A stretch of 64,000 nt of DNA from Narcine bancroftii (taxonomy: Eukaryota). The stretch spans positions 123,938,001-124,002,000 of the forward strand of contig NC_091474.1 in NCBI RefSeq assembly GCF_036971445.1, in the 5' to 3' direction. The notes under the pieces are model-generated. The model had not been told where the DNA came from and did no database searches. It worked only from the letters and a program-made list of their open reading frames with translations. The translations under genes and the position numbers were made by a program. This document shows positions 3,201 to 48,790 of the stretch, in pieces. The first letter of the stretch is position 1. Each line of letters opens with the position of its first letter.

Positions 3201-3572
3201 TAAAGGCCACTCATTTGGACATCCCAGCTGGTGCAGATGGCCGTGCCCAAGCACTGGGGCGACCGCCAAAGCAGCAGGACGCATAACCAGTTCTGGGGGG
3301 TGTTGTGTGGTGGTGCACATCCTCATGGCGAACCGGTCTCACGTGTATCGCTATGTGGTGGGGCAGCCATGGGGAGATAGAGTTGTTAGGGTTTCTCTCT
3401 GACGCCAGCCTCCCTTCCAGCACACCCCATGGGCAGCAATTATGATGTCACCACACACGTGGTGACTGAGCCCGAGCTGGCCTTAAAGGGGCCGCGCTGA
3501 ATTTGAATATACAGTCATTAACGATCTTTGTTGTGGTGACTGCATTTTTCTCCAGCTCCTCACAGTGCCACA
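287..3572 (+). mobile_element. pol: Degenerate Ty3/Gypsy LTR retrotransposon (pro-RT-RNaseH-integrase plus 3' LTR 3306-3572)
   Basis: Broken ORFs with FLVDTG (protease), WRPCGDYRRLN, MPFGLKN and YLDDILV (RT), HVDIVGPL and ITSDRGTQ...VERFHR (integrase), and YKGPY. G-rich PPT near 3295, then LTR TGTGG...CCACA. Many stops and frameshifts. Same family as 42493-46595. Confidence 0.92.
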
Positions 3573-5424
3573 GGACCACCTTGGCATGACATGCTAGACC
3601 AGTATTTGCTTGGGGCTGTTCTGGGTGGGACCCATCAATTTCTGGCCTTCTCTGGCCTCCAGGGTTCTATGTGCTGGGCTGCTTGTCGCAGTTACTGGTC
3701 TACCTCTTTCACTCAGCCCAAGGGGTTGGATTGCTGTGGCTGGCCACGGCAGGTCTGGTTCTACCTTCTGGCTGTGAGGTAATTCATGGACTTAGGCATC
3801 AGACAGTGGCTGCATTGGTTAATGTGTTGTTTCCACCATCTGTCTCCCACTAGAACAGAGAATGAGCAGGGGCTCAACTACCACCTTTGTGACTTTGTAT
3901 TGTCTGTAATCTTGTGCCATTATTCTCTGGGCCACCTCAAGTGTTCTAGGTAAGATTTGTGGCAATGTGGATTTTTCTAAACAGAGGCTCAGGTCAGCGT
4001 GAGCCGAGGACAGTCTTGTCTGCAGGTTGCAGCCAAACATCAATTCTGGTGGGGTGTGTTTTGTGGTAGAATGCAGTCTGTTTCTGTACCCCATAAGGAA
4101 ATCTGCAATTCTGTGAGTGCAGGAGGCATTTAGGAGTTTCTTGGTTTTTATCACCTTTTTGAATGTTTGTACAAAGTGTTCTGCATCTCCATTAGTACTT
4201 GTGTGATAGGGTAATAAACAAAATATGTCTGATATTGTTGTTGGACATAAATTTCTTAAAAGGTTTTGATGTAAATCGGGGTACATTGTCCATGACTAAT
4301 TCATGAGGTAATCCATATGTGGCAAACATGATCCATAGACAGTCAATTGTAGAATCAGTTTTGGTGTTTTTCTCCCATGAATGGCCCCGTGAAATCTATG
4401 TGAATCCGATGCCAGTCACTGGAAGGCCATTTCCATGGGTTGGCCTCAGCCTGTGGCATTTTTGGCTGCATTGACTGACATATTTTGCATTCTCTCACTG
4501 TTGTTTCAATGTTTCTGTCTATTGATGGCCACCAAACGTGCATCCAGGCCAACACTTTCATTCATAACATTTCTGGATGGTTGTGGTGCAGCTCTGATAA
4601 TATGGTGTCTTGCCATTTTGCCTGGATAATTGTATGGATACCCCAAAGTAAACATCCTTTTTCAACTGTTGGCCTGTGAAGTAAGCTTTCAGGTCTTCTG
4701 GTATGACCTCAGATTCTGGCAATCCATTAAGGGTGAAGTATAAGACTTGACTTAACGTTGCCTCCTTTCGGGTTTCATTGCTGACCATCTGGGGTGTAAG
4801 TTGTAGCTGTTCTTGGTTGAGAGCTGCTGCTTCTGCTGTCCATTTAATAATTTGTTCTTATTGTTCAGTTTCAGGTAGTGGTAAATGTGATAAGGCATCC
4901 ACATGGCTATTGAGTGTTCCCAGTTCCTTGTAGTTGCACGTGGCTAGTAGCATGGCCCATCTTTGAATTCTGGCTGTAGCTAATATTGGTATCCCAATAT
5001 TTGTGGGGGTCCAGAATCAAACATAAAAGTTTGCTCTCAGAGATTAGGGTTAAGTTCTTCCATAGAGATATTGGTGGAATCTTTTTTACACCAAAAATTA
5101 TTGCTAATTCTTCTTTATCCAGATGTGCATAATTGCATTTGTTTGCAGTTAATGTCCGTGAAGCATATGCCACTGGTTGCTCACTATTTTCTGCTCCCAG
5201 TCCTACTGATGAAGCATCAATGGCTAGAGTCACTTCCTTCTTTGAGTCATAGTGGATCAGCACCTCATTGTTGACATTAATATTTCTTTTAGTCGATCGA
5301 CTGTGTTTTTTGTTTCCGTATTCCAGTACCATTTTTGATCTTTCTCGAGTTTAGGGGGGGTGCATAGAGTAGACATGTTAGGGATATGTTTCCAATAGTG
5401 ATTTATAAGCCGTAGAAAGGACAG

Positions 5425-41975: not shown

Positions 41976-44675
41976 CCAGTGAAAAGCGAACACACAAAAA
42001 AAAGTAACCGCAGAAAATAAGTGTCAATGCCCAAAGGACCTGAAATTTGAAAAGGTCGCCAAGGTAAAATTGAAAAATAGGGCCGCAAAAAAACAAATTC
42101 CTGACAGATATGTTTGAACACAAATTCCCTACTTTGCCAGGCGCTCTCTCCGGACCCACTCACAAAACCCACCGAGGGAAAGAGATAAATTGTGGGAGCC
42201 ACAAGTCTCCCCCCACCATGTTTAGGAACAGCTGCTACCCCTCAACAACATACTCAATCAGGGACTTATTTTAAGACACTTCATTTTGCACATTAGTGAT
42301 TTTTTTTCTCTGCATTGCAGTCAGTTTGTTTATATTTCTTTTTGCACAGCCAATAAGTGGTAATCCTGCCTCGCCTGCAGCAAAAAGGATCTCAGGGTTA
42401 TGTGTGATGTCACATATGTCATCTGACAATAAATCTGAATCTGAGCTTCTGTTCATTCCATGGTGAGAAATGCTGCAGATATAATTTTCCCATGTGGCAC
42501 TCTGCGCAGCTGGAGATAGCACAGTCCCCACACCAAAGGTCATTAACGACTGTTTATTCGAATTCAACCCGCGACCCTTTAAGGGCAGCGCGGGCTCAGC
42601 CACCGCATGCGTGGTGATGTCATATTCGCTGACCAGGCCGCGTGCTGGAAGGGAGGCTGGAGTCAGAGAGAACCCCTGACGACACCATCTTCCCATGGCT
42701 GCCCGCCACGTGGTGATTCATGTGGGGCTGGTTCGCCATGAGAATGTGCACTGCCACACAACCCCCACCCCCAGAACCGGCTACGCATCCCGCTGCTTTG
42801 CTGCCCAGCCCTGGCGCTTGGGCACGGCCATCTGCACCGGCTGGGAGAAGTCCAAATGAGCAGCTTTTAATCAGTCCACAGTAAAATGTTCCTCCTTCTT
42901 TGAGCGTCGCATCGGCCTCGGGCCGATAAATTTGCCTGGTAGGGAGAGTGGCGCACCGTATACCATCTCTGCCAATGAGGCTTGCAGGTCTTCCTTGGGC
43001 ACCGTTCTGATCTTGAGGAAGACCCAGGGTAACTCGTCTGCTCAGTCCAGGCCAGAAAGTCTTGCCATCAGAGCGGACTTTAAGTGTCTGTGGAACCTCT
43101 CCTCCAACCTTTTGAACTGTGGGTGGTAGGCCGTGGTGTGGTGGAGTGTTACCCCCAAAGGTTTTGCCAGCTGAGTCTATAGCGCGGAGGTAAACTGGCC
43201 ACCTCTGACATTCATGATGTGCGCCGATACGCCAAACAAGTGATCCACTGGCTGAACAAGGCTCTGGCACACGTCTCCGCCGATGTCTCATGGCTTCTGG
43301 GCATCTCGTTGCTCTGTCCACTATTGTAAAAAGGTAGCGCGACTCCTTGGACACCGGGAAGGGCCCCACGACATCCACATGGATGTGCTGGAACCTCCGC
43401 GTAGCCGAGTCAAAATGTTGGATAGGGGTCTGCGTGTGCCTGTGAATTCTAGAAGCCTGGCACCTGGTTCAGTTCTGGGCCAATTCTGCCACCTCTTTTT
43501 TGAGCCCATGCCAGACGAATCGTTGCACCACTATCCTCACTCATTTGCCTTTATTGAGGGATGAGCGAGATCGTGGATCGAGCCGACGACCCTCGCCCTC
43601 CACTTCTGTTGAACTACCGGGCGCCATGTGCCAGTGCAGGTGTTGCAGAGCAGCACCTGAGAGGAGTTGGGTAGATGAATATTCTCGAGGTGCAGACCCA
43701 AGATGGCGGTCCGGAGGGCTTTTGTTCCAGTGTCATGCTGTTGGGCAGGAGAGTGCGTCCGCGTTCACATTGTCTTTGCCAACCTTGTGCCGGATGTCAG
43801 TGGTGTATTCAGACACATAGGAAAGGTGGCGTTGTTGCCTGGTGGACCACGGGTCCTTGGCCATAGTCAGTGCTTGGGTGAGGGGATTATGATAAGTAAA
43901 GATTGTGAAAGTTCTGCCCTCCAAGAAATAATGAAAGCAGATGGCCAGGTACAGTACGATGAGCTCTTGGTCTAATGCGCTGTATTTAAGCTCCAGCAAC
44001 CGCAACTGGTTACTAAAAAAGGGCAGCAGGCGCCATTGCCCATCCAGCCACTGTTCCAATACTCTCCCGTCTTCTGTAATCAAAGCATCAACCGAAAGTG
44101 GCGTGTGTGCTTCCGGGTGCAGGTGTACCAATAAGGTCGCACCAGCAAGGGTCTGTTTTGTTGCTGTGAAGGCCTCGTCTGCCTCCTCCGACCAGGCTAA
44201 GGTCTTCTCCTTTGTTGCGATCAGCGCAAACAGAGGGCACGTGGTGCGGGTGGCGCTGGGGATGAATCTATGGTAGAAATTTACCATCCCCACAAATTCT
44301 TGTAGGCCTTTAAGGGTGGAGGATTTGGGGAAATGCTGGACAGCTGCCACTTTCTCCGGTGCTGGAAGCTGCCCCAGACGGTGAGATGGTGTGCCCCAGG
44401 AAATGCAATGTTTGTTTCCCAAACTGGCATTTGGCCTTGTTGACTGTGAGGCCAAACTCTGCCAGCCGGACGAACAGGGTATGGAGATGGGCTTTGTGCT
44501 CTTTGCGGCTGTGGCTGGTGACCAGAATGTTATCCAGCGTCCTTTAATCCCAGCGGCATCCGGAGGAACTCGAATATGCCGAATGGGGTGATAATAGCGG
44601 TCTTTCCAATGTCATCAGGGTGAACTTGGATCTGGTCGTATCCCCGAACTAAGTTGACCGTAGAAAAGAACTGTG

Positions 44676-44881
44676 TCACTCTTTATCTTGGGGGGGGGGG
44701 GGATTTAGACTAACTTTAAGCTAGGTCATTAATGTTGTGTACTAATTATTGGGGGGGGGGTTTAGTTTATTTAGTCTGCCGATGTAGTACTGTAATTTTT
44801 TATTATCTTATGTTTAATCTTTTTACTGTAACTTTCTATTTAATTCATGTTATAAAATCTTAAATAAAGTTTTAAAAAAAA
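44676..44881 (+). mobile_element. Short poly(A)-tailed retroposed fragment (L1 3' UTR-like) inside the Gypsy RT
   Basis: AATAAA plus A tail, with 14-bp TSD AGAAAAGAACTGTG (44662-44675 / 44882-44895). Confidence 0.82.
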
Positions 44882-45636
44882 AGAAAAGAACTGTGCACCA
44901 TGAAGGTTGGCCACGAAGTCCTGGACATGGGGGACTGGGTACCTGTCTAGAGTCGTGGCATCGGTTAACTCCCTATAGTCTCCACAGGGCCTCCATCCAT
45001 CAGATGATTTTGGGACCATGTGTAGAGGTACCACCCAGGCACTGTCTGACCGCTGAATGATGCCCAACTCTTGGAGCCTGGAGAATTTCTCCTTCGCCTG
45101 TTTCAATTTTTTTGGTGGCAGCCATCTAGCTCTGGCATGCAACAGGGTCCTTGTGTGGTGATGTGGTGGAAAACTCCATGTCGGGGGAAAGCGACGTCGA
45201 AGTGTGGCTCCAGGATGGCGGGAAACTCACTGAGAATTTCAGCGTACTCATCCCTCACGGCGGCTACTGTGGCAATTCTGAGTCTGTTGTCGTCCGCCAT
45301 GCCCAGTCGCACTGAGTGAAAAGTGCAGGTGTTGAGTAGCCTCCTGCCCCTCACATCCACGACCATGATCCCTCAGGAAGTTGGCCACTGAGGCCAGCAC
45401 AAACCTCCAGGTGAATTTTTCTTCACCGATATGTATCTGCGCTCCACGGTTGCCATTGGTCTTGATTATGGAGCCATTGGCCACCCGGAGGGTTGGACCG
45501 GGAGATCAGGTATGAATCTCCAGGGCTGTAGGGAGCAGGGCACTCAGCTCGGCCCCTGTGTCCACCAGGAACCAGCGGCCTGTGGATCTGTCTGTGACAT
45601 GAAGGGCGCTGTTTACGTGGCCAACCATTGCAGCCA

Positions 45637-46314
45637 TCAACGGTAGCTGGCCTGGTCATTTCCCTGAAAATTGCAGGGTTGGCAGGACTTACGAGCTTGC
45701 ACTCCCCAGCGCTGGTGGTAAAGGCACCATGTTGACTGGGTGTCCTCTGGCTTGTGCTTGGGGGCAGCCTGCGGTCGATGGGGTCCCGGTTTGGAAACCT
45801 GGCTGAGACCCGCCACATTTTCCTGCTTTGTGCACCAGAGGGCATCTACCTGGGCTGTGGCCTTATGGGGGTCAGTGAACTCCTCTTCAGACAAATGTAG
45901 CTGGATATCGTCTGGCATTTGTTCCAGGAAAATCTGGCAGAAGAGGAAACACGACGCGTGATCCTCCGCCAGAGCCAGCATCTCGTCCATCAGGGCTGAA
46001 GGGCTGCGGTCACCTAACCTGTCCAGGTGTAAGAGCCTGGAAGCACGTTGATGGAGGGTAAGGCCAAACTTCCCCAGGAGCAGGTTTTTGAGGGCGGTAT
46101 ACTTGCCCACTGGTGGTGATTGATGTATGAGATTGTCCACCCTTGGCGCCGTCTCCTGATCCAGCGCACCCATGATGTGGTAGAACTTTGTGTCGTTGGC
46201 TGAGCTGTTGTGCCGGTGGAATTGTGCCTCCAACTGCCTGAACCATGTTTGTGGGTGATGGGACCAGAAAGGGGGATGCTTGAGGGCTACGGTGTTTACC
46301 TCAGCTTTGTCCAT
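45637..46314 (-). CDS. gag: Gypsy Gag-like ORF (225 aa)
   Basis: ATG 33 bp after the PBS; LKHPPFW...WFRQLEAQF...LGDRSPSALMDEM...CLYHQRWG...CQPC (degenerate CHCC). Confidence 0.72.
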   Translation of the reverse strand: MDKAEVNTVALKHPPFWSHHPQTWFRQLEAQFHRHNSSANDTKFYHIMGALDQETAPRVDNLIHQSPPVGKYTALKNLLLGKFGLTLHQRASRLLHLDRLGDRSPSALMDEMLALAEDHASCFLFCQIFLEQMPDDIQLHLSEEEFTDPHKATAQVDALWCTKQENVAGLSQVSKPGPHRPQAAPKHKPEDTQSTWCLYHQRWGVQARKSCQPCNFQGNDQASYR

Positions 46315-47095
46315 CGTTAATTGGGTCCAGAAAGATGTCTGGGCCTGTCGGGGTCACCACTGTAGCACTCTGCACAACTGGAGAAAGCACAGTCCCCACA
46401 CCAAAGGTGTTTAATGACTGTTTATTCAAATTCAGCCACCAAGTGTGTGGTGATGCCATAATCACTGCCCAGGGCGCGCGGTGGAAGGGAGGCTGGAGTC
46501 AAGAAGAACCCATAATGATGCCATCTTCCCATGGCTTCCCTGCCACGTGGCGATATATGCGGGGCCAATTCGCCATGAGAATGTGTGCCACCACACCCAT
46601 TTCTTTGAACCTCTAACTGATCTGAACAAATGCCTACTCACAGAATATGGTTGTGGTTGAACTTTGTGGTAATGGAATTAGATTATGGACAGAATGCTTT
46701 CCACAGTACTCCTGTAGAAATTTAAAAAAACCTTTGGTGTCATACGAAATCTCCTCAAACTATTCACAAAGTATAGCCATTAGCATCATGATGCCATCAA
46801 CATAGAGGCACCAGGACTGATCCTTAGAGATGATGACCCCTCGATGAGGACTGGATCGTGTTCTGGTTTTCTCCAGGAGGAAAGCCTCTAGAGCACACAT
46901 GTCAAACTCTGGCCCGCGATATAATTATATTATATTACATATATATTAGAGTTGGCCCGCTGGCCGCCGCGCAAGTATAGCACATGCACAGCAGCAAGCA
47001 CTACCGTAGTAGTTTATAGCACTTCCACAGCAGGCACAGCAGTCACCGATATAGTTAACGGGAAAGTTAATTAGATATTCACAGCGGCGCCGATA

Positions 47096-47249
47096 CAACG
47101 TACCCGCCGCCTAGCTCCAACGGACCCGCCGCCTAGCTACAACGGACCCGCCGCCTAGCTACAACGGTCCCGCCGCCTAGCTACAACGGACCCGCCACCT
47201 AGCTACAACGGACCCGCCGCCTAGCTCCAACGGACCCGCCGCCTAGCTC
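47096..47249. repeat. 22-bp tandem repeat x7 (CAACGGACCCGCCGCCTAGCT[A/C])
   Basis: Seven contiguous near-identical units with no spacers. Confidence 0.95.
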
Positions 47250-47250
47250 C

Positions 47251-47565
47251 ATGTGCCTGGACGTGGTGGGTCACCTCCGCGTCTCCTTGAGCTTCATCTG
47301 TGGGCGGGTGCTGCTGGGCATCGGACTTTCCGCTGGGGTGGAGGTCGCGGACGAGTTCCACCGCTCTCACGGTATTCCCGGTGAGATGGCGAGACCAGCG
47401 GGGACTCCTTGGGTTGTTGGCGGCGGTTACAGCAGGCGGAGGCGGGGGCGGAGGAGGGAGAGGGGGCGGGGGGGATGCCGCTCGGGTTTGCTGGCTGGGC
47501 TGGGGAGGGCTCCCTGCAGACCTCCGCTCCCTGGCATGCTTCTCGGCAACGTGCGATCCTTGGCT
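47251..47565 (+). mobile_element. Captured 5' fragment of a Rex1/L2-like LINE ORF, strongly A-depleted
   Basis: Translates ...RRRRGRRRERGRGGCRSGLLAGLGRAPCRPPLPGMLLGNVRSLA, matching the basic N-terminus and LPSILLANVRSL motif that precede the APE domain of Rex1-like LINEs. Confidence 0.72.
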
Positions 47566-47809
47566 TAAAGGCTAGAGAGAAATATTATTTTATTTCTTAT
47601 TTGTTAATGCTTCTTATGGAAAGAGTTTAACCAAAACTATTATTAAACATTTATTTTAATAAGAAAAAGTTTAACATTACATATGTTGAGAGAAAACATG
47701 CAGATGTTGTTGAAAATTTTCAATAAATATTTAGTTCGGCCCTCGACTTAGTCCAAGTTTTTAATTTTGGCCCTCCGTGAATTTGAGTTTGACACCCCTG
47801 CTCTAGAGG

Positions 47810-48790
47810 GTGTGCAGGCGGGGGTTTACTGAAATGACTCCATGATTGAGGGGTATCTGCTCTTTGCTGAATTCCACCTACTGGGACATTCTCTTTGGAG
47901 CAGAGGAGGTTGTGAGGAGATCTGATCTTGGGACAAAACCAAGAAGGGGAATGAGAATTGATAGAAAGTCTCTGTCCCCACACGTGTAAGGACCAGGAAG
48001 TAGGGGTGATAAAAACTGGCCATGTGGTTGATAGTGAGGAGGGAAGCTGGGTATTGATGGGCCGGGCAGTTGAATCCTGGGAAGAGATGTGATGGAGGCT
48101 AAGGCCAAACATTGTCAGGAGACAACTGTCCCTCTGCACACAGTGTCACAGAGTGCAGAGGGACAGTTGGGCTCTGGAAACCACATCCAGAAATCCCTGA
48201 GGGTGGGGGATATGGGTCAGGTGAACACACTACACCTGCTTTCCCTGGACAGAACCCTAATGATGATCACCCTACTGGAACTGGATAAACAAGTGACAGG
48301 ACGGTGTACATTTCTGGTGAACACTTCACAGTAAGTTGGGAATGGTGTTGGAGGTACACACATACAGGATTTCTGAGGTTGGTGCCAAAATAGTCATTTC
48401 ACTATTGGGGTAAAAGGAGGTATAGTTGGATGTTGGTTTTACAAATGGGAGGAGAAGGAGGGTGGAGGCAGTTTAACTTTGGTTTGGAAACCACAAGAGG
48501 CCTTGACAGAGTCAAGGGGAAGGAACTACCTTCCTCAGCAGAGGTCAATAAATGTAAGGGCTGGGGTTGTGTAGGGAGATCAGGCAGGGTGGGTGGAAAG
48601 AGAGTAGAAGCTGAAGAAGATTTTCTTCTCCCAGAGTGAGCTGTAACTCTGAAACTCACTGCTTGAGAGGCTAATGGAGGGAGAAAGCCCAACATCAGGA
48701 AATCAAAGCAAGAGGAGCATCTGATGTCCCTGAGCGCTGTAGGCCAGGGATGTGGGGGTGAATGTTTGACCTGCAGGACACAGTAGAATG
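47810..48790 (-). mobile_element. Degenerate Penelope-like element fragment
   Basis: Minus-strand HKDSIPFS.F...ICSQ-like RT C-terminal motif near 47920-47960 and SRPLVVSKPKLN upstream. Heavily decayed. Confidence 0.5.

Follow-up and report, generated by a model that had tools for sequence, protein, structure and literature searches.

A-to-G hypermutated Rex1-type LINE sequence as cargo of a hAT DNA transposon family in Narcine bancroftii

Traces of deaminase activity and of foreign cargo in mobile elements have been described in several systems, which we compare here as they appear in the accessible portions of the papers cited. In A-to-G hypermutated DNA of Rous-associated virus as well as of avian leukosis virus (PMC12925331), as in the cargo considered here, about half of the A are changed to G over a limited stretch, the changes being fixed by reverse transcription and ascribed to ADAR. 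Those were infecting retroviruses in cells, while in our case the sequence belongs to a non-LTR element, is fixed in the germline and has been amplified by a DNA transposon. Host-deaminase hypermutation kept in genomic retroelement copies is also known from APOBEC-edited LTR retrotransposons of vertebrates (PMC4866542); there it reads as sense-strand G>A made on the cDNA, whereas here it is sense-strand A>G in a LINE. ADAR is nowhere named in the text of that paper. Equally dense A>G clusters are produced by ADAR hyper-editing in repeat RNA of animals, in most vertebrates with upstream G depleted and downstream G preferred (PMC5625713). Those clusters were observed in RNA reads and are not heritable, whereas the present cluster is in DNA; its inverted partner was not found in the searches described below.

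Pack-TIR elements, like the hAT described here, move foreign cargo to new sites with target site duplications (TSDs); however, their cargo is host non-TE DNA taken at the DNA level (PMC8277862), whereas this hAT carries an edited retrotransposon insert with its tail, TE-derived throughout, and has kept a transposase. Bipartite non-autonomous LINEs resemble the insert in having only 5′ and 3′ LINE parts. The ORF-less LINE clades in the accessible text of PMC5786205 are RTE, Ingi, Vingi and R2, with Rex unmentioned there, and in this genome we found no free multi-copy bipartite family; the internal deletion of the insert may therefore be a one-off or postdate the insertion. In the literature searched (mostly open-access, without supplements) amplification of an ADAR-type edited retrocopy by a DNA transposon was not described. 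A 2016 review, in the part accessible, called the role of ADAR editing in evolution of retrotransposon subfamilies undetermined (PMC4982230).

The edited stretch and its parent LINE

The window analyzed is a 64-kb stretch of N. bancroftii DNA, and coordinates below refer to it. At 47251-47565 there are 35 A in 315 nt; by base count, this is the lowest-A 315-nt stretch of the window. Of the 34 A whose 5′ neighbour also lies within the stretch, 20 come after G, 11 after C, 2 after T and 1 after A, so that our recount (31 of 34 after G or C) agrees with the initial annotation, which had drawn attention to the A-poverty and to these neighbours. Frame 1 gives the Rex1-like peptide quoted there. The two TA dinucleotides left in the window copy are secondary: in alignment with the parent, one arose via C>T and the other via a private G>A. 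The 5′-neighbour count alone is weak evidence, because a parent copy (L036) already has 52 of 69 A after G or C; the case is carried by comparison with the parent, in which 33 of 65 aligned A are changed to G and none of 56 T to C.

The parent was searched for with a genome motif forcing A at one TAG site. Ten of the 13 matches were LINE copies running on into endonuclease and reverse transcriptase (RT); the other three were copies of the short-form element described in the next section. The parent LINE is ~83% identical to the cargo and, as had been anticipated, A-richer (69-70 A versus 31-33 in the cargo; GC 58-59% versus 68-69%). In Rex1 elements, a conserved 3′ UTR is followed by an oligonucleotide repeat that varies in length (PMC6274825, accessible text). 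Full copies of the parent LINE, 3.5 kb in length, have a conserved 3′ UTR and then a pentamer repeat of variable length. An AP endonuclease (PF03372, above cut-off in protein P0001) is encoded upstream of RT, with an RT-type peptide downstream; 28 of the 29 relatives found carry PF00078 or share the N-terminus, most of them have PF09004, and fish are among the sources. Because of the layout, the 29 relatives and the N-terminal motif, we call the parent Rex1-type, with putative placement in Rex1/Babar. The ancestral peptides guessed in the initial annotation fared well in four of five cases, the parent LINE having PWIV, ERKQKRG, LARLRK and LPSMLLSNVRSL; the guess for the first was wrong, as the parent has HSIPSEI and not HNIPDEI.

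The hyper-edited Rex1 ORF start occupies 47269-47564 on the plus strand, which is the LINE sense strand, and differs from three single LINE copies by 31-33 A>G changes in the window copy. In the comparison of the short form with the LINE, 27 of 33 and 9 of 10 loci were aligned (the remainder had no alignment anchors), giving A>G 33, T>C 0, G>A 1, C>T 5, A>T 3 and others 5. For the long form of the element (18 of 24 copies aligned, against 12 of 14 for the LINE) the counts were A>G 35, T>C 1, G>A 1, C>T 3, A>T 2, C>G 2 and T>A 1. The strand asymmetry of A>G versus T>C (35 versus 1) has binomial p=1e-9 and Fisher p=1e-10. From the first to the last edited site, 35 of 71 A are changed to G, and the fraction edited depends on both neighbours. 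By 5′ neighbour it is 8/8 after T, 7/12 after A, 10/21 after C and 10/30 after G (permutation p=0.0008); by 3′ neighbour it is 23/35 before G, 7/16 before C, 3/12 before A and 2/8 before T (G 23/35 versus 12/36 for the rest; permutation p=0.006). All eight TAG and all five AAG triplets are edited. The strand-specific dominance of A>G and the depletion after G, both named in advance as marks of editing, are thus present. The neighbour preferences published for human ADAR1 are U>A>C>G on the 5′ side and G>C~A>U on the 3′ side (PMC3113232); judged by these counts, the neighbour bias of the cargo follows the published ADAR order. Relative to the parent, CpG in the edited stretch rises from 15-18 to 25-26, the number of TA drops from 8 to 1-2, and A>G changes create two predicted G-quadruplex motifs, neither of which the parent has. 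The edited peptide had no matches in the protein search or the Pfam scan.

The edited stretch is sharply bounded; the hAT body and the Rex1 UTRs are unedited. In 1857 columns of hAT body (5 cargo-less versus 8 long-form copies) we counted A>G at 2 of 543 A, along with G>A 11 and C>T 8. Five blocks of the Rex1 5′ UTR have A>G at 1 of 40 A, and that one is the boundary site 47269. In the Rex1 3′ UTR there is no A>G in a 106-nt pairwise alignment, while the column count that includes a poorly aligned tail gives 2/29. Density of edited sites declines at the end of the domain, with 2/14 and then 0/4 A in the last two bins. Ordinary full-length LINE copies (five compared) have 0-6 A>G in 3.5 kb.

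There are also ~10 differences other than A>G in the ORF stretch. In the parts of the insert that lie outside the edited stretch, most differences from the LINE are sense-strand changes to T (L102-L125); in the 5′ UTR blocks these are C>T 5, A>T 4 and G>T 1, with no G>A. This excess in the UTR pieces may reflect a missing donor lineage. Two genome patterns meant for a donor closer than the known LINE subfamily gave 1 match (a short-form copy) and 9 matches (all of the known subfamily), and no such donor was found. A 610-bp 5′-truncated Rex1 copy (L147:959-1590) has three 3′ UTR variants in common with the insert; no other trace of a subfamily closer to the donor turned up. Measured against the column majority, non-CpG divergence is 1.7% for the long form, 1.1% for the short form (23 copies) and 0.9% for the LINE. 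This order indicates that the long form preceded the short form, and the LINE subfamily at hand is probably the true donor's younger sister. In runs X1, X2 and X7, which are RNA by guess, there are contigs (626-2284 nt) from the LINE 5′ region in its unedited state (L102:1246-1568); they may be a sign of transcription of the parent LINE.

The hAT element in its short and long forms

The edited stretch is enclosed in a 907-bp element at 46894-47800 with 16-bp terminal inverted repeats (TIRs) and an 8-bp TSD, CTCTAGAG, identical at 46886-46893 and 47801-47808. All its parts are given on the plus strand. The left TIR (46894-46909) is complementary to the right TIR (47785-47800) at 12 of 16 positions and forms the same end in cargo-less sisters. 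The hAT left end, 46894-46992, matches cargo-less copies up to the insertion point and is unedited (A>G at 1 of 35 A, long-form versus cargo-less copies). Then come unedited pieces of Rex1 5′ UTR, 46990-47093, beginning ~27 nt inside the LINE 5′ end with a 3-nt microhomology to hAT; LINE 28-113 aligns to 46990-47070. At 47094-47248 there is a 22-bp minisatellite of 7 units, expanded from Rex1 5′ UTR sequence that is single-copy in the LINE (one unit). Among 30 copies of the element (L056-L085) this array gives from 2 to 18 unit matches, and element length varies accordingly from ~0.8 to 1.7 kb. Next to the array lies the edited ORF start, joined at 47564, over one shared base, to the hAT right end (47564-47800), which is 94.8% identical to the right end of a transposase-bearing copy (L089).

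Two other features were seen in the vicinity. A palindrome with 23-bp arms, 91% complementary and separated by 1 nt, is located at 48123-48169. A broken LTR-retrotransposon occupies 42620-46314 on the minus strand, its right edge ~500 bp left of the hAT element; it contains a gag-like ORF (45637-46314) as well as RT/RNase H-like and integrase-like pieces, and is presumably of Ty3/gypsy type.

A search for cargo-free hAT turned up two loci, L045 and L046. Extended outward, L045 proved to be a 3.16-kb element that shares the TIRs and the edited cargo and contains a transposase as well. This long form is present at no fewer than 28 loci, i.e. at least 28 (24, one being a 1.4-kb deletion, plus 3 plus 1). 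Where both ends of a copy were located, the two TSDs differ by at most 1 mismatch in 15 of 16 cases, and TA is at TSD positions 4-5 in 16 of 16 left flanks. From left to right, the insert comprises LINE 28-113, additional pieces of UTR, the array of 22-mers, LINE 483-851, LINE 3441-3545 and a pentamer tail resembling the LINE's own, after which hAT resumes; relative to the LINE, 2.6 kb is lost internally. The Rex1 AATAAA is situated between the cargo and the transposase. An intact transposase ORF of 604 aa (L121:641-2452) has a Spin-doc zinc finger (PF18658, above cut-off) and GTF2IRD2-like relatives. The best relatives, 72-79% identical, are in other animals; the nearest named ones (77-79%) include a bryozoan and a teleost record, a patchy distribution of the kind that frequently accompanies horizontal transfer of hAT elements. 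On sequence grounds, the transposase-bearing element is a SPIN/Charlie-like hAT, ‘Charlie’ being the label we presume for the family.

Considering the best 30 of 315 transposase loci, ranked by likeness to a long-form copy, we found 23 with the cargo and 7 without. The empty site is visible in 5 of these 7 cargo-less copies: 13 bp of target was lost at insertion, with short microhomologies, and comparison with cargo-less copies revealed no TSD at the Rex1 insertion site. The insert ends in the Rex1 tail, which points to a retrotransposed RNA. The initial annotation had the RNA inserted into a DNA transposon with intact TIRs and TSD; the edited sequence is indeed hAT cargo, but the target was most likely the transposase-bearing hAT, the short element having come later by deletion. 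Likewise, it had taken the cargo to be edited LINE; that holds for the ORF start, while the insert is larger and includes unedited Rex1 UTRs and tail, and ~10 of the differences noted above are not A>G.

The 907-bp element of the window is, as its structure suggests, a deletion derivative of the ~3.2-kb transposase-bearing hAT. The junction specific for the short form has 231 matches in the genome. A DNA search of the genome with the element gave 288 candidates, and the 40 of these that were scored are 96-100% identical. In a first set of 30 loci, 17 had both ends, with 16 identical TSDs and 1 near-identical, differing between loci; in a second set of 30, both ends were found at 23 loci, and the TSDs agreed to within 1 mismatch in 23/23. 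Counting copies with the edited cargo, which had been proposed as a check, thus yields hundreds of TSD-flanked copies. Eight sequencing runs, from two studies and one organism, are listed. Contigs from short reads hold the cargo and the short-form joint in all four runs that were compared, the empty-site joint in two and long unedited LINE pieces in three; since such contigs from two studies contain it, the cargo structure is not an assembly artefact. At the hAT termini, contigs are roughly a thousand times deeper than over the transposase (L102:780-900, 3800-4000), and several other internal deletion joints were seen; together these indicate that the cargo-less hAT family has many more short derivatives.

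Origin of the A-to-G pattern

We consider it very likely that a Rex1 RNA was hyper-edited by ADAR and retrotransposed into a transposase-bearing hAT, with the result then spread by the hAT and its deletion derivative. ADAR would likely have hyper-edited one Rex1 LINE RNA over ~330 nt at the ORF start, Rex1 nt 480-820 presumably being double-stranded via antisense or inverted Rex1 sequence. The Rex1 RT would have read I as G during insertion of the RNA, starting from the tail, ~130 bp inside the hAT 5′ end; such an insertion would have occurred by target-primed reverse transcription, once, in the germline. The hAT would have stayed mobile, a later deletion would have yielded the 0.9-kb short form, and both forms would have carried the A-to-G pattern onward. 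The cut-and-paste spread of an editing record, foreseen in the initial annotation, is borne out by >250 loci, with TSDs at loci where both ends were found, and its edited LINE transcript reverse-transcribed into DNA is supported by the A>G spectrum, the neighbour order and the Rex1 tail. This reading starts from what is observed (the parent, the polarity, strand and neighbour bias of the changes, their limits, the 3′ UTR and tail, the empty site, the copy numbers); the pattern itself suggests ADAR as the enzyme. Several points weigh on the other side: of 30 A after G, 10 are edited all the same, the exact donor is missing, the Rex1 insert has no TSD, the UTR changes to T are unexplained, no dsRNA partner was found, the searches described below gave neither an unedited or free short Rex1 derivative nor a second edited Rex1 copy, and cell assays on human L1 RNA found no editing by ADAR1 (PMC5224506).

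The partner was looked for in several ways. Two LINE copies and the long form contain no long inverted match, and no inverted Rex1 was present within 9-10 kb around 15 LINE copies keeping the edited region; the longest predicted helix is 10-11 bp, and edited A are predicted to be slightly more paired than spared ones (0.43 versus 0.35). This lack of a duplex partner in the LINE, in the long form or beside the 15 LINE copies would suit some other one-strand process, such as reverse transcription that was error-prone or used a damaged template, another adenosine deaminase, or deamination of the inserted DNA while in an RNA:DNA hybrid; in model hybrids, ADARs are capable of editing the DNA strand (PMC12925331), and the unexplained excess of changes to T in the UTR pieces would fit as well. 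However, 35 changes of A were to G versus 2 otherwise, unlike the output of a sloppy polymerase; the 5′ and 3′ neighbour biases both match ADAR; had the first cDNA strand been edited, the sense strand would show T>C, which was seen once; and the cluster stops inside the LINE piece, with flanking hAT spared. We regard processes of this kind as very improbable. A reversed polarity, with the G-rich form ancestral or GC-biased and G lost from the LINE by CpG decay or APOBEC-type G>A, is hardly credible: decay of CpG is conceivable for the 10 of 35 sites that come after C, but 25 of 35 are outside CA context, the LINE copies are near-uniform for A, and the single T>C means that there was no symmetric GC gain. 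At conserved edited codons the 29 outside Rex1-type proteins agree with the LINE residue (S 29/29, R 28/29, R 23/29, I 20/29), which already contradicts a G-ancestral reading.

Editing of the RNA could also have preceded a DNA-level step, the edited RNA being retrotransposed elsewhere first and the edited genomic copy later captured by hAT through template switching in gap repair, i.e. by the Pack-TIR route. Microhomology at both junctions and the lack of a TSD fit gap filling (PMC8277862, accessible text), and the insert has several internal deletions. Against such a capture, the insert spans from near the Rex1 5′ end to the exact Rex1 tail with host flank on neither side, and genome pattern searches did not find a free edited source copy. 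An edited downstream pattern gave 19 edited matches, all long forms, and 14 unedited ones, but no free edited copy; a pattern for the Rex1-insert junction gave 18 matches, all long forms (13 known, 5 new), and no free derivative. Of the Rex1 3′-end matches, 25 of 26 are inside hAT. A pattern meant for a free unedited short Rex1 derivative gave 123 matches, and the 30 loci read from these all hold the edited cargo in hAT. Probing of one 31-nt site near the ORF 3′ end gave 0 matches to a second hyper-edited Rex1 copy. Capture at the DNA level seems to us quite improbable; for ADAR-type editing by either route, RNA insertion into hAT or later DNA capture, our confidence is high.

Implications for Rex1 and hAT evolution

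The presence of the parent, the empty site and the long and short forms in one genome allows the history of the edited molecule to be followed at single sites and in temporal order. The family provides a template for a genome-wide three-letter search. It is also a warning for annotation, as the edited cargo, having no protein matches, would pass as unique GC-rich sequence. One could speculate further that the insert is more than a passenger, and that the Rex1 5′ UTR and the edited stretch, with its added CpG and G-quadruplex motifs, act as a new control region in front of the transposase, so that one editing act would have founded or shaped a DNA transposon family; we think this unlikely, but if it were true, ADAR-scarred retrocopies would be a general and uncounted source of heritable change in vertebrate genomes. 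Under the preferred reading, ADAR-edited RNA inserted into hAT, the cargo is a sign that ADAR acted on LINE RNA, either in the germline or in the early embryo, and shows that inosine-rich RNA is still retrotransposable. One edited RNA molecule would thus have become a heritable, amplified part of the germline.
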